Shown piece by piece: positions 4,143 to 63,452 of a stretch of 64,000 nucleotides of DNA. Within the stretch, counting starts at the first letter, position 1. Each line of letters starts with the position of its first letter. The notes beneath the pieces were generated by a model, which searched no databases, was not told the origin of the DNA, and saw only the letters and a program-made list of their open reading frames with translations. Location of the stretch: the NCBI GenBank assembly GCA_976551045.1, contig CDPCPM010000024.1, forward strand, positions 2,728,001 to 2,792,000, in the 5' to 3' direction. Position numbers and translations under genes: made by a program. The DNA is from Glaucostegus cemiculus. Its lineage: Eukaryota.

Positions 4143-4210
4143 GACTGGATAATTCCAATCATTTTCTTGTGCTCATTCTTCCATGGAGGCTTTGCTCACA
4201 TACACATAAG
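4143..4210 (+). promoter_or_regulatory. Conserved proximal promoter of copy A
   Basis: GACTGGATAATTCC at 4143, TCCATGGAGG at 4180, degenerate TATA position TACACATA at 4201, 78 bp before ATG 4279; same spacing as in paralogs. Confidence 0.55.
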
Positions 4211-4278
4211 ACATACATTTAAATGCAAGAGATCTGCACATCTGTCCCACGCACCAGAAACGTGGCCTGTCTCCGATT

Positions 4279-4348
4279 ATGCAGTTTGCTTTAAAGTTAC
4301 TGACTGAATTCATTTACTACCATATTCTTGTCCTAATTGGCGTTCCTG
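4279..4348 (+). CDS. GPR139-like GPCR copy A, coding exon 1
   Basis: ATG...MQFALKLLTEFIYYHILVLIGVP+G, then GTAAG donor at 4349; 70 nt, phase 1, same structure as copies B, C and F. Confidence 0.85.
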
Positions 4349-5235
4349 GTAAGCTCGTTATAGAATTTTGTAATAGAAATATTACTCTATGTTTTACTTG
4401 TTACCTATTTTCGAAAATGCTAGAAAATGTTTCAGGTTTCTTCCAAATTGGTAATACAAATATCCAACTGGAAAAAATATTGCTCCGGACTTTGAACATT
4501 ACGGCTTTAGATGAATCAGCTTCCGTATGTGAGTCGCCCTTGAAATTTATTGCATAATCATTCAAACAAATGCATGACTAGATTGTTGAAATTTGCTCCC
4601 CGAAGCAGAAAATTGTGGTTTCCACGTTTCCAAAACTAACAAAAGGAAATTTGTTCTTCGCAAACGATGAATGTTCTTTGCTAATGACAGTTCGTCCCTT
4701 TCTCTATCCTTCAAACAAATCTAATCAATTCGCCGCGCTGAGTCCCTCCAGTGCATTGTTTGCTGTTCCACTTCCCAGCATCTGCAGTCTCGCGTCTCCA
4801 AACCTAATAATCTGTCCGCGTACGTGAAAGAGCAGACGAATACAAAGGTCATAAAGAACGCTCATCCCGCCAACACCGGGCCACGAAGACGTTCGCCGTT
4901 TGCACTCATCCACGCAGCTGGATGGATGATTGCAAACGACATTATCGCTCATAATCCGATCAGTTTGCATTTTATTCTACTGAAAATCAGGACTACCTTT
5001 CCAAGCATCGTCTTGTCGTGCATACTCCAAGGTGGCTTTGCTGCAATCTATTTTAAAATTTCTACCTGCAGCAGGAGATAGGTGGACATCCTGTACACCA
5101 TATGCCATTGCCAGCCTAACCCATTGACTCTCGGTAACTGCAAAGGGTTCGGTTACTCTCCAGACCGACACCCTTCATGCTGAAAGTTAGAAAGTAATTT
5201 TGTCATTTCTCGATATACAAACGAACGGCGGCATA

Positions 5236-5385
5236 NNNNNNNNNNNNNNNNNNNNNNNNNNNNNNNNNNNNNNNNNNNNNNNNNNNNNNNNNNNNNNNNN
5301 NNNNNNNNNNNNNNNNNNNNNNNNNNNNNNNNNNNNNNNNNNNNNNNNNNNNNNNNNNNNNNNNNNNNNNNNNNNNNNNNNNNNN
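5236..5385. other. Assembly gap (150 N) in the intron of copy A
   Basis: Run of n. Confidence 1.
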
Positions 5386-6334
5386 ATAAATACAATAATG
5401 GCTCTGGGGAAACCTTCATATACGACCGTTCTTTCATAACGCTAATGCACATGGTAGTTTCCTCGCTCGCACTGCAATCAATGGTAGTATTTATTCGGCG
5501 TAACATTCCAAAACATTCCAAGCATTTTATTCATGGCATTTTCCGAGAATGACACAATTCCAGGAGAAGTTTAATTTTAATTTGTATTATGCTCGCTCCC
5601 AATGTTTGTTTGAAAGTGGCAATTATACCATATGACACTGACTCATACATGCAGTCGACGGAGTCACGATATTAAGTTGAGTTTAAAATCTGGGCTTAAA
5701 CTATTTCTTGACAGCCTTCTGTAAACGTAAGTATATTTGAAAAAGGAAAGAAAAATACATTTGCATAAAATAAAAACAAAATATGAGAAACTGACAAGCC
5801 CAGGTCTGTGCTAATTTGATCTGGCTTCCAAATGGCAACAATTCAACTGATTCAGAAGCGTCCGTCTAGAGATTTCGGAGAGAATTGGAGCTGAGTTTCT
5901 GCCAGCTGTCTGAACGTATTCTGCTGAGTCGCCAAAGCTGGGAACTTTAAATATCCTTGGATTGAAATTCGACCTCATATTATAGAGAAACTTTCTATAC
6001 TTTCAGTAGTTGAGATGAAGATGACACTTTTATAGTATATCTGCGTGAGCATCACATTACGCGGTTTAGGATGCGCTTCGTGCAACTGCAAGAGGTTTTG
6101 GGCACTGCAGCTGATCTCGCCGTAGGGGACAACTGTTAGGTTGCAAATGTATATTTGCACGAATTCAGAATCTGTACGCAATCTAGCGGATCTGAGAGGG
6201 CGACGTTCTCTGTACCTGATCCATCAGATGTATTCCAGTTATCAGTTTCATCTCCTAAAACTCGCCCAGGTTGAAAGATGGTAAGGCGAGCTGGGATTTC
6301 TAAATCAAGTAACCTTGAAGTGCTGAATTGGTGT

Positions 6335-6885
6335 AGGACATAGAACGCTGCAGCGCGGTACAGGCTCTTCGACCGAGAATGTTGTGCCGACATTTTATCC
6401 TGCACTGAGATCTATCTAATCCTTGCCTCTCACACAGCTCCCCATTTCTGTTTCATGCATGTATCTATCTCAGATTCTTTTAAATATCCAAAATGTATCT
6501 GCCACGCAACCTCTGCAGGTAGTGCATTCCACGTACCTATCACTCGCTCTGTAAACAAAAATGTACCCGTGGCATCCCCATTATACTTTCCTCTCATTAC
6601 CTTAAAATTAATCCCCTCGTGTTGCCATTGCCGCCCTGAGGAAAATGTCTCTGACTCTCCACTCGATCTATGCCTGTTATCGTCTTGTACTCCTCTCTCA
6701 AGTCACCTGTCATCCTCCTTCTCTCCAAAGAGAAAAGCCCGAGCTCACTCAACCTATCCTCTTCAGTCATTCTCTCCAATACAGGAAACATACCTGTACA
6801 TCTCCTCTGTAATCACTGTAAAGCTTGCACATCCTTCTTATAATAGGGCAAGCAGAACTAAACACAATTATCCTGAAATATCCTG
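6335..6885 (-). mobile_element. CR1 LINE 3' fragment
   Basis: Minus-strand ORF EDRLSELGLFSLERRRMTGDLREEYK is the CR1 ORF2 C-terminus; catagaac tail; absent from unit B. Confidence 0.8.
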
Positions 6886-7289
6886 AAATATTTCATTCTT
6901 ATATTTTTCAGCTAGATTTCGACAACTTTGCAGTTACCAGAGATATTGTCAACAATTCATCAGGATTCCTGCTGTTTATTCTGTGCTATGAGGATATTAC
7001 GTTGAGCTGATGCTAACTATCCTTTGTCTATGTTGTGCCTGTCTAAAACAAGAATACATAGGTCATAAGAAAGCCGTAACAGGGTTATGAGGGATATGAG
7101 GTTGTATTTCTGAACAATCGGAGAGTTTACAGTCTACAACAGTTACCAGAGATTGCGTTGGAAGCAGCTACTCTCACAGCCTTTCAGAAGCATCTCGCAC
7201 AGCCATTATAATCGCAAAGAAACAGAAAGCTGAAAAAAAACGACGACAAAGATGAGTAGTAACAGTAAGTGCAAAGGTCCCCATAGTAT

Positions 7290-7706
7290 GGAAGATCTAA
7301 TGCACAGATCGCATGAAGCTGCACAGTATTGCGGAATCAGACGGTCCCTCACGGGCACAACTCTCCCCTCCATCGAGGACATCTTCATAGTGCGGTGCCT
7401 CAAGAAGGCATCAACATCATTGAGGACGCTCACCAACCGAGACATACCCTGTTTCAATATTACCATCTGGAAGGAGGTACAGGAGCCTAAAGACCAAACC
7501 CAATGTTCCAGGAACAGTTTTTTCTCCATCGTGATCAGATTTCTGAACGGTCCATGTCCCATAAACTCGATCTCGTTATTCATCTTTTGTACTATTTCCT
7601 TTATTCTTTTGTTCAGTTCTTGTCAATGTTATATCTTCAATGAACTGCTGCCGCAAAACAACAAACATCACGACGTATGTCAGTGAAATTCAATCTGACT
7701 CTGATC
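7290..7706 (+). mobile_element. Rex1/Babar-like LINE 3' fragment
   Basis: TGTTLPSIEDIF..RCLKKA and SRNSFFS motifs, tctgactctga tail; paralog at ~18420-18795. Confidence 0.7.
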
Positions 7707-7830
7707 GTTTTGAAGAAATGTGATTGATGAATAATCAATCAAATTAAATACACATTGTTATAAAAATGTGATTTAGTTGCTATTCATTTCGAATTAACAT
7801 ATGCTTCCTGCATTTTCTCTCCGATTACAG

Positions 7831-8736
7831 CTAATATGGTGACAATCTCAATCCTATCATCTGGAAAATGCGGCCACTCCAAATGCATCACCCAGTATCT
7901 ATTGTGGATGGCTGCAGCTAATCTAATGCATTTGATCGTTAGCGGAATACTTTATCGGATATTCGACCAGTACTTTCCATATTCATTTCTCCATTACACT
8001 CCTGTTTGCAGTCTTAATCTTGCCTTTATTTATGTTTCTATTGAGTGCTCTGTTTGGCTAACTGTGGCACTTACCTTTGATACATATGTTGCAATTTTTC
8101 ACCAGTCATTACGAACAAAATATTGTACTGAAAAAAAGTGCAAGCATCGTTATAACAGTGGTTTGTTGCACAGGTGTTTTGCAAAATATTCTAGTGTACT
8201 TCGTGTTTGAACGTCGAGAAGAAGTTAACAAAATGCCATGGTTCTGCAGAGTAAAATCAAGCTTCGACATCTTACCGACTTGGGCTGCATTCCTCTGGTT
8301 GGAAACTATATTAACGCTATTTTTGCCATTTCTGTTGATCCTCCTGTTCAATGCGTTGACTATAAGGCATATTATACTGGCGAACAGTGTCAGAAGAAAA
8401 CTCCGAGAAAGCAACACTGAAAAGAGGCAGACAGATCAAGAGATCGAAAACAGAAGGAAATCCATAATCTTACTACTCGCAATATCTGGAAGTTTCATTT
8501 TGTTATGGGTGGTAAATTTTGCCAGCTTCATCGCTTTCTATTTTACAGATAATCAATTGATGAACTCCGAGGATGATGATACTTTCACGATTGTAGAAGA
8601 AGTTGGTTATCAGTTAAGATTTTTAAGTACCTGCACAAACGCATTCATTTATGGTGCCTCCCAAAGCTGCTTCAGAGAGGAAATGAAAAAAATGATCAAA
8701 CGTCCTCTTGTCTTAATTGCAAAAATATTCAAATAG
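7831..8736 (+). pseudogene. GPR139-like GPCR copy A, exon 2 (frameshifted; ~324 aa if repaired)
   Basis: Acceptor ttacag|CT AAT ATG. ORFs 7836-8210 and 8077-8736 join if the A7 run at 8131-8137 is A6 as in copy B. 7TM motifs SVWLTVA and STCTNAFIY are present; DRF has become DTY. Confidence 0.85.
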
Positions 8737-9420
8737 TTCGGAACAGCAAACAATCTAGCCCGGAGTAGATGTTGTTTAATTGCTGATCAGAAATTCAAAC
8801 GCATTAATCCCCAAAACACAAATACATGACGGCATACCTTTTGCCAAATCTATGTGTGATCGATTAACTGTTTTTCAATATTGTACTTGAGCTTTCCCAA
8901 ATCATGCATAACGTATGAAAACATCTCTATCTGAAATATAATAGCGGAGACAATCAGCTTTGCTGATTTTAAAAGTGGAGTTCTATAGACCAGTTTAGTT
9001 TGTTGCAGAGATTATCCAATCTGTCTGGGCGAACCTTGTTACTTTAACCATGATGGAAAAATGCGAACACATAACTGGTTGTGGAATATTCCTTGGAACG
9101 AAAAAAATAGCAACAATGTTTTCACTCGATGACCTCTCATCATAACTTAGAATTGTTGGAAATTAAACGTTCTTTGAGAAGAGAGGAAATCCTTTGCCGA
9201 TAAAAAAAAAATGCATGAGAATGCAGTGACGAATATAAACTGAATGGCATCTGTGTTTTCTGTGTTTTCCGACAGAGGGTTACAAAAAGTGCTGGTTATC
9301 ATATCTGATTGCTCCGGAGAGTGTGGTGACTTGGAAACAGAACGAATGTGGTGCTGCGCAATTTGAATATGAAATACGGATAAAAGTTAAACATAAAGGA
9401 GGACAATTGTATAGTCAGAA

Positions 9421-12262
9421 TTTCGAAGCCTCCTTGAGATTCTGAGTGGAATTGTGACGATACAATCTACTTATCTCCCAGCTCATAAACTAACTGTTGA
9501 AATATCCCTTACATTATATTTCTTCCTTGATCAGATTGCATTTAGTTCGGCAAACCAAATAAGGTGAAAAATTTTAAAAGAGCCTTTCACACAGTCTTGG
9601 CTTCAATATCCCTGGTATTACCTCGGGAAATATATTTGTTGTACAAATGATGGTCAACAAATACTGATTCCCTGCCTTGGTCTTTGGCAATGGGCCAACA
9701 CAATCCACAATTACCTTTGAAAAGCATTCACCAAATGCAAGAATAGTCAGTAATGGAGGCATAAGGGGTTTCGGTTTACCTGCCATTTGACATGTGTGAC
9801 AATTCCCACAAAATATTACCAATCCTTTCTCGCACCAGGCCAAGAGAATCGTTTAAAAACCTTCTTTACCGTTGTTTTCACATTAAGGTGATTACCTGAA
9901 GGCATACGATGGGCCAGGCAGAAAATCTCATTGCTGAATTTCGGGGATCACAACCTGATAAACAACTGCACATTCCTCACTAACAGGAACATCAGGAGTT
10001 TTCCACTTCAACATTAACACTCCATTTTTGAAATAATATCCAACTGGCACGTTCGCAATCTCATCAATTGAGAGTGTTTTTTTTTTATCTCAATACAGCG
10101 AGCTCAGCGTCTTTGGCCTACTTCATCCTAAGCTCTTTTCTGGATAGAGACAAATCTTTACACTCTGACTCGACACAAGTACTTTGGTCCACAAGTGAAG
10201 AAAGAAAAATCTCTGACAAATCATCATCATTATTTGAATCTAGTTTTAGGCTGCAACAGCGAATAAATAGCAGGCTGCACAGAACCATCTGCATTGGCTG
10301 GATTCAGAGCTTATCTCGAGTCACTGCACCGGATGGATAAACATCGGAATCGATCTTTAACTCATCAATAATCGGTTTGTTCGTTAGCGGCACCGCAGGG
10401 AAAAATTTACCACCTGCAAGTGCATTCCCTAATAACAAACAAACTCTTTCTACTGGTATACGAGGTCGTTGTCCTATTTTAATAAGTCCTTCTACTAACT
10501 CTGACTTGAAAATACCTTGTGCAGTTGTATAGGCACAATGTCTGCTGTAATGCATCGAACTAGCTTTCCCTCACCAGTGGCAGTATTGTCAACAAACTTC
10601 AAAATATTGTCCAACAAGAGGGACTGCAAGGTCTCAGTAACCCGAAGGATTTTCACAGGCAACAAGTGTGTCCCATTTTTACGAAAACGAAACCCTCTGA
10701 CACAAAAGAATGAAATTTATCCCTAACTCCTTCCAACGTCTCAGAATTTGCCTCCATAGAGGACTGAGATTTATCAGCATGTCCAGATCCCCTTCGGTTT
10801 TTAATTGTTTCAACTGTTTGCAAACAAGCATCTGGCACTGCCTCCTTTTCCTTCCTTTTCTTCAGGAGGGAAAAATTAGCTAAAACATGACCACGTTTCT
10901 TACAAAAATAACACGGACAATCAGCAGGTGTCTCTAATACTTGCTTCCGATTATTTTTGCCCTACATACTACGTCCCAATTTGATTTCTGGTTCACCTGA
11001 ATTATCCACACTACTCTTCTGGAAGGTCTCAGTTTGTCCCATTTTATATTTGCGAGTTAAAGCAAACTCAGTAGCTGACTCAGCATCTTCGAGCAATGTT
11101 TCCAATTCCTTCTCATATAAATGTGTTTGTAAGTCATTCTGGACACACCTTTTAACTTTTTCCACAAAAATCAACTCTTTCAATCTTTGATAATCCTCAT
11201 TTGTACTTTGATAGTGCACCATTTCAAAACGCAAACTCTATTCGCTAGCAAACACCATTTCAGTCTGGTTCACATATTTCTTCAGATTCCTGAAATTTGG
11301 CTGTACGCTTCAGCAACCAATTCAGAAAAGCTAGGCACAGCCTGTTTTATTGTATCATAGTCAGCCGCCTCACTAACGGATAGGGCAAAATAACCATGTT
11401 GCGCTTTACCTCTTATTACACTTAGTAACATAAGAGACCAACTGCAAAGTGGCCACATTTAACTCTGAGCATTTTGTTTTCAGAATATTGAAAATACTGA
11501 TCAAGCTGATCTTGCTCAAATGGAGGGACTAATCGAACCTCCCTGCTGGCCATAAGGTTACCACCATAAACATAAACAAAACCCCCACGCTTCGTCATTT
11601 CTAACTCATGCTGCCGTTCTTACTCCTGTTCCTCCGCCTCTAAAATTATCTTCTGCACTTGCACCTCCAGCTTCCTGACTTCTATATCTAGTCTACTTTC
11701 TTCTGTCTCAGTCTCTATCTTCTTTTCTTCTAACTGAATCTGGGCCATCTTCACCTGTACCTCAGAGATCTGATTACACCGGAGGAAAATGTTCTAACAT
11801 GCTCTTATCAAACACCCTCTCATCCTCATAATATGCAACTATCAGTCTTGGAATATCTGGCTCTTTCATAGATCGCTTTGCTGCTTCAAGTTTTAACGTT
11901 CTGGCAACGCTCAACAACTCTTCCTTCCACGCCCTGTGCGATCCAACAAGTGTTCGTGATTCCATTATGCATCAACATCCATGGCTGCTGGTTTTCGCAC
12001 ACACTAGCCAATCAAAAGGAAATGTATCAGATGAATAATCTCCAAGTTGTTTCAAACACAGACCGCTTGTACCGCTCTTGAGTTCCATCCCGGACGAGTC
12101 CTCAATTATTACAGTTTGAATTAATTATTCAATTATTACACTTGTATTATTACAGTTATAGAAGCTTGCTTCTCCCACTCCCAGCAATCATACAAAACCA
12201 CACACACTACCGTACAGGTGCCTTAAAGGGACACTCACCAAGTAGCAACCTGGCTCGTAACA
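9421..12262 (-). mobile_element. Truncated Gmr1-like Ty3/Gypsy LTR retrotransposon (5' LTR remnant, PBS, gag with zinc knuckle, protease, integrase)
   Basis: Minus strand: TGTTACG LTR start at 12262; gag; CYFCKKRGH knuckle (~10890-10918); protease-like ILRVTETLQSLL and LLLGNALAGGK; integrase CHTCQMAGKP, VDCVGPLPKTKAGNQYLLT, QSDQGRN, SSQFHSESQGGFE ending ~9421. Many stops and frameshifts. Confidence 0.85.
12087..12104 (-). promoter_or_regulatory. Primer-binding site complementary to the tRNA-Pro 3' end
   Basis: Minus strand reads TGAGGACTCGTCCGGGAT, 16/18 match to the canonical PBS-Pro TGGGGGCTCGTCCGGGAT, immediately inside the LTR remnant. Confidence 0.8.
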
Positions 12263-13587
12263 ACAGTCATATAATGAACTAAATCGAGCAGTGAGAATGA
12301 ATATGTGGAAACCCCTTCAAATATCATAAAATAATTCCACACGAATTGACCTTTTAGGGACCCAAACATCAAACTACAGCAGAAACGCTTCTATGCGATT
12401 CTACAATGCACTACGATATCAGAATGTTATCCACACTCCTATATCATTGTTGTAATCCGGTATCATTCATTTGTTTTCACTGACATCAGTCACTAAGCTC
12501 TAAAATCGAAGTCCAATATTCCACAGTGTCCGATTCTGAGTAGAGTGTCCATTTCAGAAACAGTTCGGGATATATTGCTGAATTTCTTTCTTCGTTATTC
12601 TACTACTCGTGCATGCCTTGCTATTTCCAAGGAGTATAAATAGAATTATCGCCAATATGTGGAGAAATCACGTTGTTAGATATCCTACAGTCTCGCTGAG
12701 AACGTCACAAGCCAACCACCTGGCTGAACTTACAAGTGGCCATGAACTTATTTGGGTTATACACACCTCCAGTGCTTACTGAAACTTCATTTGCAATTAG
12801 GCAGTGAAAACAAAGGTAATCGCAATTTGCCTTAAAAGAAAATATAGTGAGGCGAAAAGCAACTTGAGGGTTCTGCCATCAAAATTGCTCTTGAGAATAT
12901 GCGAAAGGAACATATTGTCAGGTGAGTCAAAAAGTCGCTCTGCTCGCAATGGTATTAATACTGAACACGTCAGCATACTTCTGTATATCTTGCCAACGAG
13001 CGAGCGATATTGACAGGAGCCACGCGTTCCATAATGATCGTCGTCTCATGACGTTAAGAAAACTGAGAACCGGGTTCTTTGTTTTTCTTCTTGCTTCCTC
13101 ATAAGTTATATGTATGGATATTCGTAAGCATCAGGGGACATTTGGAGCAGAATGTTTCCACCAGCGACAAGAGTGTTCCTAATGAACCTGAAATGATAAC
13201 ATTCAAATCGATATTGTTGGTCTGTACCCAGTCCAAGTAGAATAAGATACACAGTCCTTCTTGATTCTGTTTGTTCTCATTGTGGCGGCGGGAAATGCCG
13301 ACAGAGACATCATTTTGGGAATACAAAGGGAGGTTCAAATGCCATGCAAAATAATAAAATATAAAGAAAGCGGGAAGGACATGGAGAGATATTAGGAAGA
13401 TTCTCAAAGGAACGTATTCGTTTACCCGGAGGAAGAGTAAAGCTCAGGAAAGGGATTATCCACAGGGTCAAAGGAAAACACTTCGGCTTGAAGTACAGTG
13501 AGATGACGAGGTACTCATGAAAACGTTGCATCAGCATTCACCGAGGAGAATGTCACGGATGGTAGTCGGATTAAGAATGGGTATGTA

Positions 13588-15200
13588 ACTATCATAGGGG
13601 AGTAGAGGGGGTACACAATCCTGACGACCCAAATTCAGCGTTTCAGGAACTGCTTTCCCTTTCGTTATCAGATGTCTGAAAAGTCCATGAAGCCATGAAC
13701 ACCATCCCGTTATTCTTGATTTGCAAAATCTATTTATTTTTGTAACACATTGGGAATTATTTGTCTTGATGTGTTGCACTATACTGATGCTTTAAAACAC
13801 AAATTTTGCGACACATTTCCGTGATGATAAACCTGATTCTGATGCTGGTAGTCCATTCAATGTCGATATCAGGGTGTTTGATTATTGAAAATAAATAAAT
13901 ATGTAATAATGTCCATGCCCTGAGACATTTATATCAGCAAACAGAAGATGACAACGGAGAGACTGCTGGGGCTATGACCTATTTTTTGTATCCTCTTTTG
14001 CTATAAGCAGGGGTCCAAAACACTGGGGAATTGCCAATTTTTTACTTTGTTGAAGAAGTGCAACAAAAACATTCTTGGAAATTATCGCCAGATTCGGTAG
14101 CTAAACGACTGGAGAAGTTTCTCAGAGACATCATTTCCTCGGATTTATAAAACCTTGGCCTTATTAGGAATAATCAGCATGTCTGGCCTTTGATTTATAG
14201 GAGGAAGTGCGGATAATGATTACTGGAGGTTGGTCAAAAGATGCTGAACCATGGCCTTTAGTAAAACACTTGTCAATATCTATTATGGTAGACTGATTTT
14301 CGGATGATGAAGCAAATGGGACTCACATTCAGTTGCCGAATGCGACCTGGTGGATATTCCGGTGGAGTGAAATGCGAGAGGAAGGATTGTAATGCGGACA
14401 ACTGTGAGGTGTTGCACTTTGGGAGGGAAAATGAGGCAGGAAGAAATGCAGTAAATAGCAGGATCCTGAGGCACCTTCATGTTCTGTGCGATTTTGGGTT
14501 GAAATTCCATTGCTCCCTGAAAGCAGCGATGCATGTGAGTCGTGTGGTAAAGAAAGCGTAAGGCATGGATGTCTTGGACACGGTCTTCTGACCCGTTATT
14601 TTTATCTAGCCATTTCAAGCCATGCAAATTTTATACTGAAAATCACAATGTACGTCGTAGAATGTGCACTTCTATTCTCCACATTGAAGAATGTATGGGG
14701 ATGTTCTGCACATCAGATTCACCAGGACATCGAACAGACAAGACTGCACAATGGAAAAGGAGGGGATGGACTAATCTGGATATTTTTTTTTTTTATTCTG
14801 GAGAATCTGAGGATGAAAGGCGTCCTGGTAGAGATATAATACTTGTGAGACGCATTCACAGAGAAGTAAGTGAGAGCCTTTTTTTGCCACAGTGTAGAAA
14901 TGTCAAAAACATGGAAACATGCGTTGAATGCAATAGGAGGTAATATTTAAATGAGATTTTCGAGGCAAGTTTATTTTTACACAGTAAGTGCTCGGTGACT
15001 TGATCGCACTGCCTGTGGGGTGGTAGAAACAAATAGGATAGGACTTTCAGAGGCATGCAGACAGACATATGGACAGACAGTGAATATTGCGATGAGGACC
15101 ATGTGGAGCAAGACGTGTTAGTTCTTTAGATTAGCACTCTGGTTGGCACGGACACGATCTGCTGATGCGCCCGTTCATGTGCGGCAATATTCTATTTTAT
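13588..15200 (+). mobile_element. Rex1-like tail plus degraded CR1 fragments (duplicated with unit A)
   Basis: CNADNCEVLHFGREN...LKAAMHVSRVVKKA CR1 ORF2 motif; aaacctgattctgat tail at ~13830. Confidence 0.65.
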
Positions 15201-15696: not shown

Positions 15697-15762
15697 GACT
15701 GGATAATTCAAATCTTATCTTTGTGCTCAATGCTCCCTGAGGGTTTCTCTGACATATAAATA
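15697..15762 (+). promoter_or_regulatory. Conserved proximal promoter of copy B with TATA box
   Basis: GACTGGATAATTC at 15697, TCCCTGAGGG at 15734, TATAAATA at 15755, 78 bp before ATG 15833. Confidence 0.65.
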
Positions 15763-27027: not shown

Positions 27028-27041
27028 GTAGGTCAGTCGCA

Positions 27042-51215: not shown

Positions 51216-53134
51216 CAGTGTTTTGTAAAAATGCAGCTATTACATTTTATGCCACGGCATATGAAGGCACACAGACCATACGCCTTCGTCATTAGTCTGT
51301 ATAGCCATATTCCGTTTGCCTAGCCTTTCGGAATCTGTCGAATTCACGCCGAAGAAACCCCGTTATCAACATTGCTGAGCGGCCGGCCATTCATTCCATC
51401 TGTCCCACAACAGGTTGCATTCAAAAGTTCATCATTTCACGCCAGTCGGGGCAGATGCCACTTGCCACCTTTGAGTTTAACTTGCCATCTGCTTTATAGT
51501 CTGCCAAGCATCCTCGTTATTCACCATATCACCAACGTTCCGGCCACCGACAAACTTACTGATCACACCCAATGAATTTACTTAAAATTTACATCACAAA
51601 CAACAAGGATTCCATCGCTGCAGTACAACACTCGTCCTAGAATTCCCATAAATATATTCAGCCCTGCATTCGGACGCCTTTCTACCTCTCATCAAAATGA
51701 AGAATTTCGCCTTGTGAATTAGCTTTCTGAAGCAGCCTATTGTGCAGAAACTGAATAAATACCTTTTGTAAGTCCACGTGGAAAGCGTTGTCCACTCTGC
51801 TTTCATCAATCGTCTTAGAAACCTAAAAAAGGAAGCTAAACAGTAATTAAGATTCTTTATTTACCCGAGTCCGTGCTTTCTATCTCTGATCAGCCTCTTA
51901 CATCGCAAATGAAAATAAACCTACCCCGCAGAATTTCCTACAATCCATTCCCACCACTGACCTAAGTCTTGACGGTCTTTTGTCACTGCTTTTCCCTGCA
52001 GCCCTTCCTAAAAGAGGAACGACATATCTTTAGTTTCCATTCTCCTTTCTCCTCAAGCTTGACGAAGGATTTTTTTTTTTTTTGTAATAGGGATTGTGAT
52101 TTAGTAAACGTCTCTTTCTTATGCAATCGAGGGAAGTCGGATCTGATCTGCTTCGGAAAGAATGGGTTGTTCAGGATTCTGATGGATAAGTTCAAAATGA
52201 GGAAGAATATAGATATATTTAAAGAAACAAAACAATGAAATGTGAAATTCGAAACAAGCTGCTGGGATTCTCAACTGCTTAGGTAACATTCGTGCTGGGA
52301 CAAACAGATATGTGAGTGTTCAGCTCAGCCAACAATTCTCGGAACCGGAAAATACTACTTTCACCGGACAGGGGAGGTTGGAAAAAAAACAAAGGAAACG
52401 TCTGTGATCGGACGGGTACCAGGTTATAGGATTTTAGGTGGAATTTCAGCTGCAAATCAAATGACAGCTACACTCGAATGCAACTGCAACGACTAAAAGA
52501 AGCAGTGATTAAACACATTGAACACGTTCAATTGCTTTTGACATTGCGAAAACAAAACGGCTGGGTTTTTTTTGTGCATGCTTATAGCTCCATCGTCCAT
52601 GCCTTTGAATATTGGAATGGCCGGCTGCCCAGGGAACAGTTTTGGTATCTAAGATGGCCGACATTTAACACTGAGCATGTTTTATGAACTATATCACTGC
52701 ATGTGCATGTTGCATCTGCTGCGTAAGAATGGATCCTTGCGGTAATATGGGCAATATTTTGACCATGCGTTTCTCGCACATTATCACATAATTAAGATGC
52801 AGACTATTCTGTTGCGATGGTAAAGATATTCGGATTGAAGCTAATTATACTTATTAATCAAGAGATTGTTGGAACTATTTCTTTTATATATATCATACTT
52901 GATTGCTTTTTTTAATGATTACACCTGATTGTTACCTGATATCTCTGTAATACATGTGTAAATATTGTTGTTATATATATTAACCTGTATTGATTTGTTA
53001 TCAATAAAATGATTGAAAAAGAAAGAAAGAAGCTCGTTTGGAGTGATTGAAATGAACATGAATAATGTTTCTGTGAATACGTAGGCTCCTCCATTTGGTC
53101 GGGCGTGCCAGCTCTCACTTCACAGAAAGAGAAA

Positions 53135-53570
53135 AAGCTGGATGTACTCAACGGGTCAAGAGCAACTGTGTGTCGACGTTTCGGGCCTATTTCCTGCATC
53201 AAGACTGAGAGGTATAAGGAAAGATTGTTTGTACAATGTAGTATTTAGGGGTTTGGTTAGGGACAAGGACTGACATGTGACTGATGGAGGCAGATGGTGA
53301 ATGTCGTGATGGTCAGATGGAACGGGGTTTGCAAGGGATGGGACAGATACTGGCATGTGAAAGGTGGAACCAGGTTGTGAGGAGATAATGGGCAAAATTA
53401 ACCGGTTAGGAGAAAATATGAGGAATGAACAAATGGAGAATAAAATCTGGTATAGAGAAAAGTACGTGGACGCAGAACACCTTGGCATTACAAAAAAACA
53501 CAATGCTTTTAACTTCAAGGTACCCGATAAGAATGTGCACTTCTGTTCTTCCAATCTCGGTGTGAATCTG
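53135..53570 (-). mobile_element. Penelope-like fragment with hammerhead-like motif
   Basis: LEEQKCTFLSGTLKL remnant; minus strand ttgatgcaggaaataggcccgaaacgtcgac. Confidence 0.65.
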
Positions 53571-54774
53571 TGACAGAATAATTGGCAGAATCATTGGCAG
53601 AATAAACCCAGCATTCTCTGCAGCACAGATCTAGTTTCACAGAAGCGGACATGAGGTTGGTGGTCAGCATTTGTTTGTGTGGACGATGGGTGACTTCGGA
53701 GATCGCTGTCAAACAAATTAATATTCTGTCATTAAGGCCTTCCGTTGGCAGTGGCACAGGGATCCCAGTGACACATAATTGATCCAGAAAAGAGGATCCG
53801 TCCGCAGCCTTTTCTCTGTTTGTAATATCACCCACAAATACCCAAGAAGTTTGAGTGGTCTGCCACGAGTCGTCTGCTACCAGATTACTGGCCGCCCGCT
53901 ACTTCCTGACTGAAAAGGTCCACTTCCCTGCCATAATCCAGCACAGTTCATGAACATTTACTGACAGCCGTAGACACTTGGTAAACTAACAACATGTTCT
54001 GCAACGGGTCTGATCAATACGCGTTTTTAATATCCTCTTCTCTTTTTAAAAGCATTCTTAAATTGTTGACTTCAAATCATGGGAATATTGGAAACTGAGA
54101 TCGAAAATAATGCTGAATATTGTGGCACGTTTTTACACCACTCCTTCCATTTCTTTTTACGTGTAAAATAAATGTTACACAACACTTCTACATGAAGCCA
54201 GACAGTGGGAGTAAAAGGTGCTAACTGATCATTGCATAACCCACTTCAGGATTGAAACTGTTTGTAATGTGTGTCCTTCTGAAGTTAGATTTGCACGAAT
54301 TCCAACTGTTTCATTGGACTGTGGATCAATCCCTCTCCCAGCAATCGACTTAAGGAGCTAAACACCGTGCGATGACTATCTACATTTCTGAATATGTTGG
54401 GTTTTTTTGGACGTAAGAAAATATCCACTTTGACCAATTATAGTTCATTACTGTTCTTGCCTCTGAGAATCTGAATGCACAACAGCCACGGAAGAGTTTC
54501 AGCATCTGAGATGGCGGACGTTAAAGAGTTAGTGTGATTTATGAATTATATAACCGAAACGGTATGTTGCGACTTCTTAGGAAGAGTGTGTACTTGCAAC
54601 CATATGGACTGCATTCTGACTATGTATTTCTCTTGCGTGATAAAATGATCAGGATGTGATGGCGGACAAAGGCCTCACAAGAATGTTTGGATTGTATTCA
54701 CTTCAGTGATTGAACTGAACACGGTTGTTCCTGCTGTGAATCCATACTCTACTCTACTGTGGCTTTGATCTCGA

Positions 54775-55360
54775 GAAAAGGAGAGAAAGCTGGAATAAAC
54801 TAAACAGATGAAATAGAAACAGAGGGACCAATACATTTCAGTCAATAGTTCATGTCAAGTGCCTCCATCAGGACTGAGAGCGATGAGGGAAATACCAAGC
54901 AGCACTTTGGGGTTGGGTGAGAGATAGAGGCGAGGAGGTGACTGGTGGAAGCAGGTGACGGGTAGATGGAATTGCATTGGTAAGCTGTGGGACAGAGAGT
55001 GGTATTTGAAAATTTATACCATATTGTGGTGTATGATGGGTAGAGAAATCCAGTTACGAAGCAAATGGGAAAGATTAACAAAGCAGGAATAAAATGGAGT
55101 GGACAGAAAGTTCTGTGGGAGGATAGCGCATGGAAATGGAAACAATTAACGTTTTTAACATTGGCTTGCAGGCGACCCGAGCAGAATGTGCAAAGTTGCT
55201 CTTCCAATCTGCGTCTGGTCACTCCTTAACAGCGGGGAATCCCGAGGACAGACTGGTTGGAGTAGGAGAGGAAGGCGCGTTGAAACATGAACCTAAGATG
55301 GCCGTTACGGACAGAGTTCAGGTACTCCAAAAATTGTCATCAAGTCTACACTTTACTTCA
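54775..55360 (-). mobile_element. Penelope-like fragment
   Basis: TRRRLEEQLCTFCSGRLQANVKNVNCFHF, GIY-YIG C-terminal-like. Confidence 0.65.
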
Positions 55361-55944
55361 CCAAAGTAACTGAGGTTTTATCGAGAGCACTGAATGCAGT
55401 ATTACATATTCGAAAGTCCATGGAATATATTGTCATGTTTTCACTAATTCTGTTTTCGTCTGAAAGACCATTCATTCCCTTGCATATATATTTGAACAAG
55501 GGATTCCAGTATTTTGGCCTGTCATTTATGATTGTCATCCTACTGTGACACCAAGGGATCACAATCCTTATTAAAAATTCAATTGCGCTGTTGTTGTTTT
55601 GCTTTTTGTGATATCACTAGAAAATTGTCAAACTGCATGAAATCCTGCTAGTATTTAAATGATGTTTTATTTTAATTTCATCCTACATGCACCTACTTAG
55701 TATAATATTTAAATTATACGTGGCGGAAATGAATGAAGATGCAGATTAGATCTTGGTTAAAATTAAAACAAGAAATCACTCCTTCAAGGGAAGGGATATT
55801 TATTTCATAGAAATTCTCCTCCAAGTCAGATGTTGCATAACTTATAATTGCAGCCTGGTGCCACATTTGTTGAAAATTTTAAATGTAGAATCATCAATAC
55901 ACAGAGTAGCAATTTAACCACGATCAGAGGCACATACCGAACAC

Positions 55945-56030
55945 AGCCTGATTAATATTATCAATGATTGAATAACTCCAGACATCTTGCAAGCTGATTA
56001 CACCCTAGAGTTTTCTCTGCGACATAAATA
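55945..56030 (+). promoter_or_regulatory. Conserved proximal promoter of copy F
   Basis: TGATTAAT at ~55949, GATTGAATAACTCC at 55966, ACCCTAGAGT at 56002, CATAAATA at 56023, 78 bp before the start-codon position 56101. Confidence 0.65.
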
Positions 56031-56100
56031 ATTGCTAAATGTGAAATCAGGAGTCTCGTATGGCTGTAGAACTATCGAGAGACGTTGCTTCCCTTCGTTC

Positions 56101-56170
56101 ATAAAACAGCCTGTGATACTGCAGACCGAGAGTATTTACTATCCCATTCTTGCTATAATTGGAGTCCCAG
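56101..56170 (+). CDS. GPR139-like GPCR copy F, coding exon 1 (start codon ATA instead of ATG)
   Basis: (I)KQPVILQTESIYYPILAIIGVP+G, then GTAAG donor at 56171; aligns codon for codon with copy C exon 1. Confidence 0.8.
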
Positions 56171-57562
56171 GTAAGGCAGCCATAGAATGGCATTTCACGC
56201 ATATATTGATGTGTTTGACTTGCCAACCTTAATTAATCACAGCCGAAAGGTTTGTTCTGTAGCAGGTTATTAACGCAAACACCTTAGTGAATTGGAAATA
56301 TGAAATGAATTGTATTTTTTCAGTAATGTACCTGAACAGTAATATCATAGTAGTATTAATTGTGCACTGCATTGAGCAATTATGCCAACGAATTTTGATT
56401 TTGTCTCGGGGGCATGTTATATCTGTGCTTTCTTGCATCCAGCAGAGAGATCTATCTCCTTCGAAAAGACGCTGTCAAAACAATAGCAGCAAGCCGGCTT
56501 CTATGAGGAACTCTGTGAAAATGCAGTGTTTCTTCCATTTTCCGTTTTCACTCTATGAAGCAGCCTCTGCCGAGAGTCAGTATACAAATGAAAAATAAAT
56601 GTAGGTTGACCTGAAAGCCTTATTTCACAGTATCAAACATCAGGAACCAATTCCAAATTAGAATTCTTTGTTCCTAATTTCCACCTCTTTGTTGACGAGA
56701 TTTCTCGAAGTGTAAGTTGTGTTTAAGCAAATGAAGATCAACGGTTATATGATAACGAAAGATCATATCGTTATCATAAAAGAAGGCAACAGAAGATAGT
56801 AATGAAGCAATCTGCTAAATCTCTGTATTCTGCCGATCTACAGGCATCGAAATGTGAACATCTTCATTTCAAAGTTGATTGAAAACTTTGTGGGGAGAAG
56901 CTCATGCAAGCGATGGTTGAAACATCCCGTTTAAATATATTTTAATTATGTGTCGGTAACTTAATTTCATTGAAATAAATCAATTTGGTTAATGATGAAA
57001 ATGTTTCATCTGTTTACTTTATTAAAGTATATAGAACTAATTTGTTTCTTTCCTCCGTCCATCAGAGACAAAACAAAACAAAGTTGAAAGTCCAAGTGCC
57101 AAACGTATACAGTGTTTCCAGCATGTAGCGTCTCAGAATATACAGGAGACTGAATCACAGTTCTGATCTCATGCGCGCGCAGTATCTCAACTGCACTTGG
57201 AATTTCACCTCGTTCATCCCGCCATATGGGATATTTCACAGTGGTCTTGTTGCCTAAGTGTCATGATTCCAGGCAACATGTTCTCTGCAAAGGCAAACGT
57301 TCTCACTTTGAGAGCAGAGTAAAATATATCAACAGCCGAGATTTAATTTAAAAAAATGAGACGACATCCAATCCACATGATTGTTTTTGTGTAGCATAAT
57401 GCACTACCTATCCAAAAAAGATCCACCAATGGTAAAGGAATAAATTAAATTCAGGAAGTTTTCGAAATCATTGCTTTGCTGAGTTTGAGTTGCAGCAAAG
57501 GCAGCGTCTATTTCTCGGGTTATTTCTATTTATAATCCATTTTTTTTTCTCTTCGTTTGCAG

Positions 57563-58482
57563 CTAATTTGGTGGCAATCATCATTTTGTATTCTGGAAAG
57601 TGTGGTCTCTCTCGTTGCATCGTCCAATATTTTATATTAATGGCGGCAGCAGACCTAATGGTGTTGATCTTCAATATAATGATGTATGAGTTCAAGGAGG
57701 CATTTTTTCAGCATTCTTTCCTCAATTATACACCTGTTTGTAGTTTTCTTATTGTAATGAAATATCTTTCACTTGATTGCTCTGTCTGGCTAACCGTCGC
57801 TTTTACATTTGATCGATTTTTTGCTATTTGTTTGGAGTCATTGCGGACAAAGTATTGCACAACTAAAGTTGCATCGAAGGTTATAGTACTGGTATTTTTG
57901 TTAAGCATGATAGAAAACATTCCAATCTATTTTATATTTGAACTTCGGAAAATAATTAACAATGTGCCATGGTCCTGTTTTGTAAAGTCCAGCTTTTACA
58001 CCTCACCAAGTTGTGTTGTGTTTTTATGGTTTGAGACTATATTAAAGCCATTTGCACCATTTGCATTTATCCTACTGCTCAATTCCTTAACTATAAAGCA
58101 TATTATAATGGCGAACAAAATCAGGACCAAACTCCATGGAAACCAAAGTGAGAAATGCCAGACTGATCAGGAGACGGACAACAGAAGGAAATCGATCATT
58201 ATACTGGTTGCACTATCCTGCAATTTTATTATCTTGTGGATGGTAAATTTTGCATTCTTCATTTGTGTACAGTTTACAGATACTGAATTTATGGAAACAG
58301 ATATCAATGACTCTTTCACCCTTGCAGAAAGAAGTGGCTATATGCTAAGGTGTTTGAGCACTTGCACAAACACCTTCATTTATTCCGTATCTCAGAGAAA
58401 CTTCAGAGAGGAACTAAAAATGATATTTAAGCGTCCTCTTTTTCTCATTTCTCGCTTGTTCAAACGCTTGATGTATGTTTAG
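57563..58482 (+). CDS. GPR139-like class A GPCR copy F, exon 2 (uninterrupted; 329 aa with exon 1)
   Basis: Acceptor tttgcag|CT AAT TTG; open frame to TAG 58482 with the rest of TM1 and TM2-TM7, MAAADL, C3.25 (PVC), SVWLTV, DRF, ENIP, W-x-C in ECL2, STCTNTFIY and FREEL. Confidence 0.9.
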
Positions 58483-61400
58483 GACGAAAATACCTTGGTG
58501 AAAACAAAGTCAATGTAAGTTATTCATTTAAGATGCTGTAATATAAATAGGTTTAATAATAAATTTGGTGACGTAGTTTTCATTTCCATAATGTGTTTGT
58601 ATTTCTTTTCTTAGTTATCTTTGAAGTAATAAGCAACACAATTCCATCTTTTTCGTATTTGTCACAAAGTCAATGAAACAAGTACATTTGCTTCATGTAA
58701 CTGATGAAAAGACAACAGCTGTCTCAAAAATGTCGAGACATATATGACATATTTAGAGGCATTTTGTGAAGACAGCTGTGCTTCAGGTTGGTCATCTTTC
58801 ATTGGAGCTGGAACAAAAAAAGTAAGTCAAAATGATATGATTTGTAAAACAGAAGATGCTGAGCAGTTTGAAAAGAAAAACAAGTTATTCTGTCTCCTGG
58901 CAGACTCAAAGAATGAGGGAAAATATAAATGTTGTTGTTGGCCACTGATATAGGGTCCGTGCGCTTGCTAATTGCATTTGTTTCTCTCTGGAGAAGATGG
59001 AAAACGAAAGGGCAAAATAATCAATAACCACAAATCAGAAGCAACTACAATTGCAGTAAAAAACACAGATAGAAACTGTTGAAGCAATCAACAGGACAGG
59101 CCGCATCCCAGCTGAGAGAAAACAGTGCTAATGGTGCAGGTCGTGGCCAATCATCAGGCCTTCGTGGTTCTGATGCAACAGGAAATTATGCTTGACGGAA
59201 ATTGTCGAATGCAATATCCTGAGGGAGATAAACTGTCAATCTACAAATACCGAGTGTTCACGCAGGAGTAGGACTGGGAGATGCAACAGAAAGCTCGGGA
59301 CCTCTCTGCCGGACTGAAAGATTCTGTGTTCGGCTATTCTGCATTGATGTATCTTTCCACTGCTGATAATACCACATTTTCAGCAATGAATGCAGTTTAT
59401 TAAATTGGAAGTAGAAGGTAATTTCTTGCGTTTTCTATCAGGGACGTTGTTTCCGCTTGCTTGGTGGGAAGACACGTAATATAAATACAGATGTGATATC
59501 TCGGGCACATGGTGAGGGGCTGAGAAAAGGTTAGTGGATGCTGTATTTCTAAGCTTCAAGCAGAGAACTGGAAGGATGGGGGGAAATACCTGACAGTTTG
59601 CAGCATCAATTCCTTTCAGTCTGAGACTGATGGTGAAAAGAATCAAATAACGGAACCTATTTTTTTAATCTAGAGCAAAGCTGGTTAACGGAGAGATGAG
59701 GCAAATTGAAGAGATAAGTTTGTGAAACTTTCAGTTCTGGACCAATCAAAGGCAGAGTGGAGTAAAAAAAGTACCTGAGTAGGAATGTTTTTTTTTTCTC
59801 ATCAGAGCAAATATAACAACGTTGACTAAACCAGGAGAAAGGGATGAAGTTCTTATCGGAAGCTCGGAAGAAATACAGTCAAGGTCTCTATTGCTGTCTA
59901 CGCACTTACGCCTATTAATTGAAATAGAAAGTCCAATGAAAGATCAGAGATCTTCGCGTGAAAAGTAGATCGGAGCCAAATTAACACCAGAGATGGACGA
60001 AGGTAAGATTCAAAATGAGATTTAGAAGCAACCCGAATACAGTCAGCAGTATAGCAGAATAAAGTGTGACATCAGATTAATGGAGATGTACCGCACAGTT
60101 ACAGACCCTGAACTACGTCCATTCCCACTGATTTTCCTATTTATACTAATCCAATTTTACAGCATTAGCACAACATCTTTCCTCTGCTTTCATTTGCGCA
60201 TGCCTGTCCAGATGTCGATTAATTGTTGTGATTTTATCAATTTCTCCCACCGACTCTGGAAGTGAGTTACAAATATTAATGATTCTCAGTTCTAACTGAA
60301 ACTATCTTTTCAAATCCCTTTTAATACTGATTCCTGTCAACGTAAGCCTATGGCGACATGTTTCTGATACGCATACCATGGGAGAAAATAAGATTTGCGA
60401 TAAAACCAATTGACAACTTTCATTATTTTACATCTCTCTCTCCGGTCATTACTGAACCTCCTTTACTCCAGAGTAAACTAACCAAGATTTATCCAATCTC
60501 TCTCCATATTCAGAAATCCTCCAATCCTGTCAATTTCCTGACAAATCTATTTTACACACTCACACCAGTGCAAACAAAAAAAAAACGGCAGTATTTCAAC
60601 CAGAAAGTCCACAGTACTGCATGTGCGGTGTAACTAATATTTTGTGTGTTTTCAATATAAGTTCCAACTATTATATTGTATGCCATGACCTGTGAAGGCA
60701 ATCTAGGCAAATATATCATATGTCTTCTTCACCACCTTATTTATCTCTGCTTTTGCTTTCAGGGCCATCAGTTCATACTTGTTGGCAGTAAATTCCACCA
60801 GCTACCTTCTCGCTTAATTTTCCATCTGTTCGATAATCTTTCAATATCCTCGATGTCCATAATATCACCAATTTCCCTCTTATCTGCAAACGTACTGATA
60901 ATTACTCTTATGTTCACTTCCAAGTGTTTATTTTTATCACAAACAACAAGGATCCCAACGCCGAAAAGTGCATTTCAATATTAGTCGCAGCTTTTCAATG
61001 CCAAAAAAGCATCTGCCACTTGCACCCTGTGCCTCCTGTCACGAAAAGTAACCAGATCGCCTTGGAGCCCATGCAAATTAACGATCAAGTATGTATGTGA
61101 GAGCAGATATTGGGAAACGGAAGTACGTTATTTTTCAATTACGTGATATAAGCTGCCCTAGCCGAATCTGCAAGGCTGCTCTGACGGCCGTTCTGGACAG
61201 ATTACACCACATAACGATCGCCAAATCACCCCGACCTTTCCGCAAATTAGCTGAGGTTATATCTCCAGCATCGAATGTACTATTCCATGTTGGAAGGGAT
61301 GTTCGACATGATTGTGCAACTCCCATTGGTTCTGCTGTTCAGCTTGAACACAATTCCATCTGTGACATGCCTACTTAAACAAAACAGTTTGTCATTGTTT

Positions 61401-61835
61401 TGGCATACAATTGATGAATCCCATTTGATTTCAAGTCGAAATGGCTTCAACCAATTTTAACAAGTTTCTGCAGTTTTGGGGAGAGTTTGCTCTGAGTGAT
61501 ATTTCTGGAAATTTTCATACTGCGTCAAATTCTCCGATTTTTATTTTATTTCCACAGGTAGCTGCATATTACAATATTTAAATGAGACGTACCAATATGA
61601 AGGAGGATGCATATCATATCTTGTTGTAAATAATTTTAAAAAAAACGTTAGTTCAACATAAACGACATTTATTCCAGAGAAAATGCTCTCAAATTCATCT
61701 ACAATATATCACATCGCTCTGTTTTCGTGTTTCACCTGCTGAAATTTTTAAAGGCTAAAACCTCAGTATCCAGCTCAATACTTTAACTATCATCAGAAAC
61801 ACACGCTAAACACAACCGAACTGATGTTATCAAGT

Positions 61836-62036
61836 CACTGAATAATTCCAGCCATCTTACGTGCCGATTCCACCCTGAAGAATACTCTAAGATAAAAGTA
61901 ACTGCTAAATTTGAAATCAGAAGATCGGCGTTGCTGTTCAGCTGCCTGGAAACGTTGCTTCCTCTCAATTAAGGAACGAACTTTAATCCTGCAGCTGGAA
62001 AATATATGCTATTCTATTTTTGCAGTAACTGGAGTT
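61836..62036 (+). pseudogene. GPR139-like GPCR copy G: promoter and degenerate exon 1 (61971-62036)
   Basis: CACTGAATAATTCC at 61836, ACCCTGAAGA at 61872, TAAAAGTA at 61893; (K)ERTLILQLENICYSIFAVTGV with AAG at the start position; donor site lost. Confidence 0.8.
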
Positions 62037-62986
62037 AGATAGAAACATAGAAAACGGACAGGACAATTCAGGCCCTTCGGTCCACAAAGCTGTGCTGAAT
62101 ATGTCCGTAACTCTGAAATTATTAAGCTGACCAAAAGCCATCTAGTTTTCGTAGCTCCATGCACCTATCCAAAAGTCGCTTAAAATTCACTATCGCATGT
62201 GCCTCCAACACCGTTGCTGACAACCAATTCCAAGCGTTCATCACTCTGAGCAAAATAAACTTGCCCTGACATCACCTCTGTATCTACTCTGAAGCACCTT
62301 AAACGTGTGCCCTCTTGTGGCAACCACTTCAGCCTGGGGAAGAAGCCTCAGACAATCCACACGATCAATGTCTCTCATCATCTTACACACCTCTATCAGG
62401 TCATTCCTCATCCTCCGTCGCTCCAAAGAGAAAAGAACGAATTTACTCAAACTATTTTCATAAGGTTTGCTCCCCAATCCAGGCAACATTCTTGTAAATA
62501 TCCTCTGTACAATTTCTCTGGCTACCACATCCTTCTTGAAGTAAGCCGACGTGAACTGATCACAATACTCCAAGTGGAGTCTGGCCAGTGTTCTTTACAG
62601 CTGCAAAATTACCTCGCGGCTCCTCAATTCAATTCCACGATGAATGAACGAGAATACACTGTCTGCCTTCTTCACCGAACAGTCAACCTGGCCAGCTGCT
62701 TTGAGCGTCATAAGGACTCGGATATCAAGATCCCTCTGATCCTCCACACTGCCAAGAGTCTGCCATCATATTTGACCTACCAAAATGAACCATTTCACAC
62801 TTTTATGGGTTGAACTTCATCCGCCACTTATCGGCCCAGTTTTGCATCCTATCTATGTCCTGCTGCAAACTCTGACAGCCCTCCACACACTGCACAATAC
62901 TAGCAACATCTCTGGCATCAGAAAATTTACTAACCCATCCCTTCACTTCCTCATCCAAGTCATTTAAAAAGATCACGAAGAGTAAG
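62037..62986 (-). mobile_element. 5'-truncated CR1 LINE replacing the intron and 5' half of exon 2 of copy G
   Basis: EYCDQFTSAYFKKDV..QRIFTRMLPGL..LFSLERRRMRNDLIEVCKMMR; atagaaacatagaa tail. Confidence 0.9.
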
Positions 62987-63452
62987 GTGTTCTTGTTGAG
63001 CGTGTCAGAAAACGTTCCAATTTATTTTATTCTAGAACCCCGGGATATAGGTAACTTTGTGCCACGCTCTTGTAAAACATCTATGCTTCATTGAATTGAG
63101 TCGTATTTTTTGTGGTTTGAAAATAGTTAAAATAAACTCCATTTGAACCACGAGCTGTATTCCTATTGCATTAATTCCCTGACATGAGAACGTATTATAT
63201 TGGCAAATATTAAAGTGAAAGCTCCGAGGAAATAACAGTGATTGATGTTATTGTATTATGCATGGCAAATCCAGTCTACTTCATCTATGTTCAATTTGCA
63301 GATACAAAATTTCGGCAACAGAGTTCAACTCTCTTTCGCAATTGGGTAAGATAGTGGCTACATACTTTGGTCTTTGAGCACTTGCACAAACACCTTTATT
63401 TATGCAGTATCTCAGAGAAACCTCCGAAAGGTGCTAAAGGATATGATTTAAA
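62987..63452 (+). pseudogene. GPR139-like GPCR copy G, 3' remnant of exon 2 (TM4-TM7, degraded)
   Basis: VFLLSVSENVPIYFILEPRD..VPRSC, FLWFE, and ttgagcacttgcacaaacacctttatttatgcagtatctcagagaaac (LSTCTNTFIYAVSQRN); indels and stops. Confidence 0.85.

Follow-up and report, generated by a model that had tools for sequence, protein, structure and literature searches.

What kind of receptor is multiplied in a tandem array whose shark and ray homologues mostly carry the name of a single-copy gene? The question is raised by a stretch of 64,000 nucleotides from Glaucostegus cemiculus (assembly GCA_976551045.1, contig CDPCPM010000024.1, positions 2,728,001 to 2,792,000 of the forward strand; "the window" below), which holds seven related genes for G protein-coupled receptors (GPCRs), named A to G. 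A sequence-only reading of the window had described them as a birth-and-death array of GPR139-like orphans and proposed that their organisation and turnover resemble those of chemoreceptor clusters. That resemblance is supported here by the selection pattern, by an O/E-like (Olf/EBF) element in the promoters and by the size of the family. From sequence comparisons, we consider it reasonably probable that the seven genes are decaying copies in an elasmobranch class A GPCR family that likely forms a chemoreceptor repertoire, probably used in olfactory or other chemosensory cells. The family is real and large, and it is probably sensory.

Size and descent of the family

The family extends far beyond the window. 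A motif of the third transmembrane helix (TM3), VW(L/F)TVxFTxDR, has 6,236 exact sites genome-wide and none in a reversed control, while a TM7 motif, CTNT(F/C)IY, has 3,420 sites against 8 in its control. The first figure is a lower bound, since in the first 5.25 Mb of contig C1 only 17 of the 26 TM7 sites have a TM3 site beside them. The birth-and-death turnover claimed from seven copies holds for an elasmobranch-wide family far larger than the window shows, and not for one of only a few copies genome-wide. Protein searches returned 894 and 1,559 clustered homologues; among the 120 matches listed per search, the named rows are all from sharks or rays and mostly labelled probable GPR139, the best are batoids and no holocephalan member appears.

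To sample these sites, we took 90 of the 109 sites of a rare synonymous motif variant (the first 30 and 60 of the next 70). All 90 belong to the family; exon 2 is open at 41 (46%, with a binomial interval of 35-56% that is too narrow for so clumped a sample) and 49 are broken. The 90 sites fall into 55 clusters at 99.5% and 35 at 97%, and 19 of the 35 have an open member. By scaling, we roughly estimate about 2,800 open copies (2,000-3,500) and some 1,300 distinct ones; a gene with exon 2 open need not be intact, as copy F exemplifies. Plain haplotype doubling was rejected as the source of the count: GPR139, GPR142 and the sister orphan described below each have one genome match, so the assembly is not simply doubled, clusters reach up to five members at 99.5%, and duplicates occur within contigs. 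Partial assembly redundancy in the count is possible.

It is quite unlikely, in our view, that amplification was mostly passive, with a modest functional set in duplication-prone chromatin and with most copies, plus some assembly redundancy, being unexpressed hitchhikers. Such a history would suit the recurrence of the window's block on four contigs at 99.7-99.9% identity and two or three times on contig C196, the copying of pseudogenes along with blocks (as identical broken copies), and the 49 broken sites among the 90 sampled. Yet 59 of 97 sampled open frames, whose median identity is 47%, differ by more than 10% in protein, purifying selection is seen across paralogue pairs, and large, diverse sets are present in many shark and ray genomes.

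In trees of 60 and 32 proteins (LG+G4), the family is one clade (support 100/100). Its sister is a single-copy orphan found in coelacanth, sturgeon, teleosts, amphibians, reptiles and sharks (96/89); next outward are a type from bichir and lamprey (99/96) and then amphioxus (94/93). GPR139 and GPR142 make a separate clade of their own (100/100), and protostome receptors in the sample fall outside as outgroups; among the members of the wider clade are RFamide and Wamide receptors of protostomes (PMC8557429). A clade joining the family with GPR139/142 was not rejected by an approximately unbiased test (p=0.0745), although the best tree is 30.8 log-likelihood units better without that clade. The relation to GPR139 and GPR142 proposed for the window stands as relatedness, and the best tree differs from that proposal in setting the family beside a different single-copy orphan. 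The idea that the genes are GPR139 duplicates was rejected, as single orthologues exist elsewhere in the genome: GPR139 on C73 (E 4e-161 to the human GPR139 structure) and GPR142 on C301.

Databases nonetheless name the family after GPR139. GPR139 is the best solved-structure match by sequence (E 1e-12) and, by a small margin, the first-ranked fold. Family members have two coding exons separated by a phase-1 intron in TM1 (GLP/AN), as in GPR139/142, where the genome's own two genes were compared on the acceptor side only. The GPR139 motif that the sequence-only reading had given (YY...GLP/ANI, split by a phase-1 intron) was correct: human YYSLLLCLGLP/ANI aligns, and the genome's GPR139 has the same phase-1 acceptor. 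Exon 1 of GPR142 was not found within 10 kb. Identity to GPR139/142 is about 27-31%, and C3.25, present in the family, is absent from both. A weak GPR139 match at C384:338659 (L163) is a CXCR1/2-like chemokine receptor and not a family member.

The sister orphan, represented by Latimeria XP_005988539 (annotated "probable GPR139"), shares with the family a 23-codon exon 1, the phase-1 intron, C3.25 and similar motifs in intracellular loops 1 and 3. It differs in being conserved across vertebrates and having one copy per genome here, at C233:9998639-9999610 (L192, L254). The orphan is wrongly annotated as GPR139, and TMEM183A isoforms is the name of some of its gene models. The 120 matches listed include no mammal or bird. 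Orphans beside GPR139/142 in coelacanth, gar and fishes have been named GPR210 (Rinne et al. 2019, PMC6504862), and by taxon overlap (coelacanth, ray-finned fishes) the sister orphan is probably one of these subtypes.

Pocket, selection and promoter

The family belongs to class A, as indicated by Pfam 7tm_1 and by a seven-helix model with Foldseek matches to class A receptors. The model, of homologue P0002 (predicted local distance difference test score 89.6), has seven helices, almost no N-terminus and a hairpin in extracellular loop 2 (ECL2), and its fold ranking places GPR139 first with a tight field of peptide receptors behind. The nearest structures and clusters are GPR139 and peptide-receptor-like, and Pfam gives 7tm_1 and a weak Srx match only; by sequence, the family does not belong to the odorant receptors (ORs), TAARs, V1Rs or V2Rs.

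The ligand pocket was examined in a column profile of 97 unique open frames, a set enriched for top search matches. Residues are given by Ballesteros-Weinstein numbers, which we assigned ourselves apart from the six cited for GPR139. W6.48, C3.25 and R3.50 are invariant in all 97 frames, R3.50 having been part of the selection filter. In GPR139, the agonist pocket comprises E3.32, F3.33, H5.43, W6.48, R6.51 and N7.38 (PMC7318219). Of these, R6.51 is found in 13, N7.38 in 7 and H5.43 in 30 of the 97 family frames, position 3.33 is mostly aromatic, and E3.32 lies outside the eight commonest residues, which cover 85 frames. The GPR139 amino-acid pocket is not conserved in the family, with W6.48 alone invariant. 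Extending the L-Trp/L-Phe pharmacology of GPR139 to the family is not supported: its pocket residues are mostly absent, and the sister in the best tree is another orphan.

Selection was measured in 29 disjoint paralogue pairs from open frames that are likewise enriched for top search matches. The ratio of nonsynonymous to synonymous rates (dN/dS) is 0.25 in the inner, cytoplasmic half and 0.50 in the outer half, where it approaches 1 in several pairs from expanded clades; a 20-column pocket set gave 0.44, with no positive selection seen there. Purifying selection acts on the open copies, less strongly in the outer half, and the family combines a conserved cytoplasmic face with a diversified outer pocket, as in chemoreceptor repertoires. 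As a separate observation, synonymous divergence in the C108/C590 clade (L034-L057, L152-L153) is 0.29 in the outer and 0.13 in the inner half, a pattern suggestive of gene conversion or of segments exchanged between paralogues.

The pocket bears on whether these receptors instead serve inside the body, where as neuromodulatory, enteroendocrine or gamete receptors they would respond to peptides or metabolites that the animal itself makes, similar to GPR139/GPR142 but multiplied. Peptide and aromatic-amino-acid receptors do occur in the wider clade (PMC8557429), and GPR142 is active in gut and pancreas (PMC7318219). With an internal ligand that does not change, the pocket would be expected to stay conserved, yet it is the most variable part, and single-copy GPR139, GPR142 and sister genes have all been retained; we regard this reading as very unlikely.

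The promoter provides a further line of evidence. Exon 1 was placed for 49 fetched loci and 4 window copies, giving 53 promoters, most with a TATA box about 75 nt before the ATG. We searched these for the O/E consensus (Table 1 of PMC3247239), which is enriched in mammalian odorant-receptor promoters (PMC3247239). Matches with at most one mismatch concentrate in one 50-nt bin, in 17 of the 53 promoters, the other 59 bins having 0-5. In the 41 promoters suited to a TATA-anchored test, an O/E-like site (at most two mismatches) lies 19-25 nt before the TATA in 25, against a background at that position of 2.8% for 354 other TATAA anchors and 3.8% for random anchors. None of 2,000 permuted motifs scored as well on the clade-balanced mean. 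Shifting the anchor by +60 nt gave 7 of 41, and the remaining shifts gave 0-2. The putative site is present in 9 of 12 clades; in the sister orphan (n=1), the TATA and O/E arrangement was not found within 500 nt upstream.

Some further features of the 5' regions were observed. An abundant clade (L159, L174, L175, L205-L213 and others) has a longer, aromatic-rich N-terminal extension in exon 1. A conserved element lies about 35-55 nt before the TATA, in the 26822-26841 region of copy C, with counterparts in A, B, E, F and G; in copy C it is an inverted repeat with an 8-nt spacer and a TAAT core, a candidate site for a subclade-specific factor. A satellite beside the promoter is not a general feature: tandem arrays of 20-30 bp occur at 4 of 120 family loci and at none in the window.

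A possible chemosensory role

In the chemosensory reading that we favour, the compact promoters would be switched on in sensory neurons by EBF-family factors, with one or a few copies expressed per cell. The receptors would differ from one another in their water-borne ligands, for which peptides or aromatic small molecules are likelier than L-Trp or L-Phe in the manner of GPR139. All would signal by way of one G protein, and PLC and TRPC2 in microvillous neurons are plausible next steps. New copies arise by tandem and block duplication, and many of them decay, as in the window. In catshark, 2 canonical ORs and 32 V2Rs are reported, and trpc2 is expressed in the olfactory epithelium (PMC11979771). 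By analogy, such small olfactory families may leave room for a further one, and trpc2 could offer a signalling route. The 50 most specific genes of the catshark brain-plus-olfactory library include no GPCR (PMC11979771); as V2Rs too are missing, that list is uninformative.

Several observations weigh against the chemosensory reading. From the TATA-anchored test, 12 of the 53 promoters were left out as having no clear TATA by rule, two of which carry an O/E-like site. The clade with the long N-terminus is without a clear TATA and O/E unit and may be regulated differently, while the window's own clade often has a degenerate O/E site (mean 2.8 mismatches), and a homeodomain (Lhx2-type) site is weakly enriched (0.20-0.23 versus 0.01-0.13). 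No region in the 29 pairs has a dN/dS significantly above 1. Much of the copy number is recent block duplication, given that 90 sites reduce to 55 clusters at 99.5%, and some copies may be unpurged haplotypes, as the collinearity of the window contig (C24) with C647 illustrates. EBF is active in many neurons, which would also suit receptors for internal ligands. It acts in B cells as well (reference title in PMC3247239), so the O/E site does not single out the nose. Finally, the catshark expresses many of its OR-like and V2R genes in tissues other than the nose (PMC11979771).

These last points also touch on immune sensing, in which diversified leukocyte receptors, either EBF-driven in B cells or resembling FPR/MRGPR in granulocytes and skin, would detect microbial or parasite peptides. 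EBF is required for B-cell differentiation, according to the same reference title, and some catshark OR genes are spleen-specific (PMC11979771). The outer half evolves at a near-neutral or faster rate in young clades, and a disulfide from C3.25 to ECL2, together with the ECL2 hairpin, would suit peptide ligands. We judge this explanation unlikely, since immune GPCR families are not known to reach thousands of germline copies and the fixed TATA and O/E unit resembles odorant-receptor promoters. If it were correct, the family would be an unusually large germline receptor system.

Compared with known systems, the family resembles vertebrate OR, TAAR, V1R/ORA and V2R genes in being large and clustered, with birth-and-death turnover and a variable pocket, and it has the O/E and TATA arrangement of odorant-receptor promoters (PMC3247239). 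By our estimate it is a match in number for the OR repertoire of the elephant, given as 1,948 in PMC11979771. It differs from these receptors in lacking specific homology to them, in its two coding exons and in its peptide-receptor-like ancestry. Expansions of FMRFamide-receptor-like or Srw receptors in invertebrates, with about 450 in Lymnaea (PMC11589774), belong to the same wider clade and also reach hundreds of copies, but arose independently.

A broader proposal, drawn from these sequence features and held with rather more doubt than confidence, is that sharks and rays smell or taste by means of a further vertebrate chemoreceptor class, derived from a peptide-receptor-like orphan that gained a TATA and O/E promoter. 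With 1,000-3,000 working genes here, the class would be at least as large as any known odorant-receptor repertoire and would overturn the view that the shark nose relies on some dozens of V2Rs. Cartilaginous fishes have a reputation for chemical sensing, but in the catshark no more than a few dozen genes are recognised as olfactory receptors (PMC11979771). A chemosensory role would answer this few-receptor puzzle, add an independent origin of vertebrate chemoreceptors and suggest convergent use of O/E promoter logic.

Proteins of the family are already known from public annotations under GPR139-like names, so that hundreds to thousands of elasmobranch GPCRs share one misleading label. The present analysis adds the number of copies, the identity of the sister lineage, the finding that the GPR139 pocket has been lost, and an O/E-like site at a set position. 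We found no description of the family in listings and abstract openings of the open literature, which take in few subscription papers and no supplements. By term look-up, PMC11979771 does not mention GPR139, and no GPCR term occurs in PMC10620051 or in a Greenland shark preprint (10.1101/2025.02.19.638963).

The seven copies in the window

With the copy F protein as query, tblastn against the window found exactly seven family copies, all on the + strand and 5-12 kb apart, in agreement with the seven same-strand paralogs at about 6-12 kb described earlier. Exon-2 matches are at 7830-8733 (A), 18921-19830 (B), 30934-31855 (C), 36861-37534 (D), 48471-48611 (E), 57559-58479 (F) and 62987-63439 (G). 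The earlier division into subfamilies A/B and C-G is matched by two distinct sets of shared flanks: A and B lie within duplicated flanks of 72-76% nucleotide identity, and C-G have different flanks in common. The two coding exons are likewise confirmed. Exon 1, of about 70 nt, ends in YY.IL..IG(V/I)P in mid-TM1 at a G/GT donor and joins an AG/(C/G)TAAT acceptor in phase 1 in A, B, C and F, with exon 2 encoding the remainder of the receptor. Homologues at full length have about 324 aa, and their start ATG is present in A, B and C. Among the 7 open stretches that were scanned, 6 match Pfam 7tm_1 (PF00001), and 5 of these matches exceed the curated cut-off. The features of the window are as follows.

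1..64000, + strand: whole window, part of a segmental duplicate of the C196 cluster, 98-99% identical
4179..4348, + strand: copy A promoter (degenerate O/E-like site near 4180) and exon 1; ATG 4279, donor after 4348
7831..8736, + strand: copy A exon 2; +1 frameshift in the A-run 8131-8137, in 5 of 5 block copies compared
15734..15902, + strand: copy B promoter and exon 1; O/E-like site 15734, TATA 15755, ATG 15833
18925..19848, + strand: copy B exon 2; 2-nt deletion near 19355, also on C129, C65 and C647; open on C196
26858..27027, + strand: copy C promoter and exon 1; O/E-like site 26858 (1 mismatch), TATA 26879, ATG 26958
30938..31858, + strand: copy C exon 2; one extra A (+1) within the run 31703-31709, private to the window contig
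36861..37551, + strand: copy D exon 2, decayed and 3'-truncated
44860..45833, + strand: copy E promoter remnant (O/E-like site 44896) and exon-1 remnant with an insertion between; start codon and donor lost
48471..48611, + strand: copy E exon-2 fragment; 47 codons, one stop
56002..56170, + strand: copy F promoter and exon 1; O/E-like site 56002, TATA-like 56023, ATA 56101 replacing the family ATG
57563..58482, + strand: copy F exon 2; frame open, encoding TM1b-TM7 and helix 8; some conserved sites changed in this lineage
61872..62036, + strand: copy G promoter and exon-1 remnant; start codon lost, cut by a LINE-like (long interspersed nuclear element) fragment
62987..63439, + strand: copy G 3' exon-2 remnant; stops and frameshifts

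The sequence-only reading had seen every stage of decay from near-intact to fragment. The remnants D, E and G agree with this, but no copy is intact as assembled, A, B and C being frameshifted and F having lost its start ATG. The 2-nt deletion of copy B is found in 4 of the 5 block copies compared. The frameshift of copy C may be an assembly error, because the extra A is found only here and exon 2 is open in 5 other copies. Copy F was considered as an intact candidate and rejected for its lost start codon; all 3 copies checked have ATA, while ATG is retained in an older paralogue. Tested for relaxed selection, the copy F lineage has 17 nonsynonymous and 8 synonymous changes, which point neither way. 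For copy D, promoter and exon 1 were looked for and neither was found; copies E and G no longer have a start codon or a usable donor, and little of their exon 2 is left. About 6 kb beyond the window, the next gene has an ATG, a TATA, an O/E-like site and an open exon 2.

Similarity to C196 starts about 1.7 kb before the window, which makes the window the 5' end of a duplicated block whose source cluster spans at least 1.4-5.6 Mb of C196. Identity of 99.7-99.9% holds to C129 over the whole length and to C647 and C65 where compared. At five test positions outside the block, C129 has 0, C65 2 and C647 3 matches, which shows that true segmental duplications are among the copies. An allelic relation to the window contig is possible for C647, which is collinear with it over at least 400 kb.

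Duplication is also seen elsewhere. Within the C196 cluster, about 0.97 Mb is tandemly duplicated (2.09-2.91 versus 3.06-3.88 Mb), and near 4.1-4.6 Mb there is a third copy of greater age. Broken copies identical to one another are seen four times on C68, and others on C3/C162/C270 and on C85/C152/C267. In 10-kb tiles taken by offset on C24, C647, C65 and C129 (L112-L131), 8 of 20 hold a family copy, three of the 8 being one duplicated copy, and these contigs appear family-dense well beyond the window.

Two minor features lie around the copies. An upstream flank of 3.2 kb is 72% identical between A and B (1384-4600 versus 12954-16154), level with the coding exons, and is possibly regulatory or an old insertion in common. 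Decayed LINE-like fragments are found on the minus strand at 28128-29455, 33830-34225 and 62036-62986 (weak RVT_1 matches, under the Pfam cut-off), the last of which replaces the intron and 5' exon 2 of copy G.

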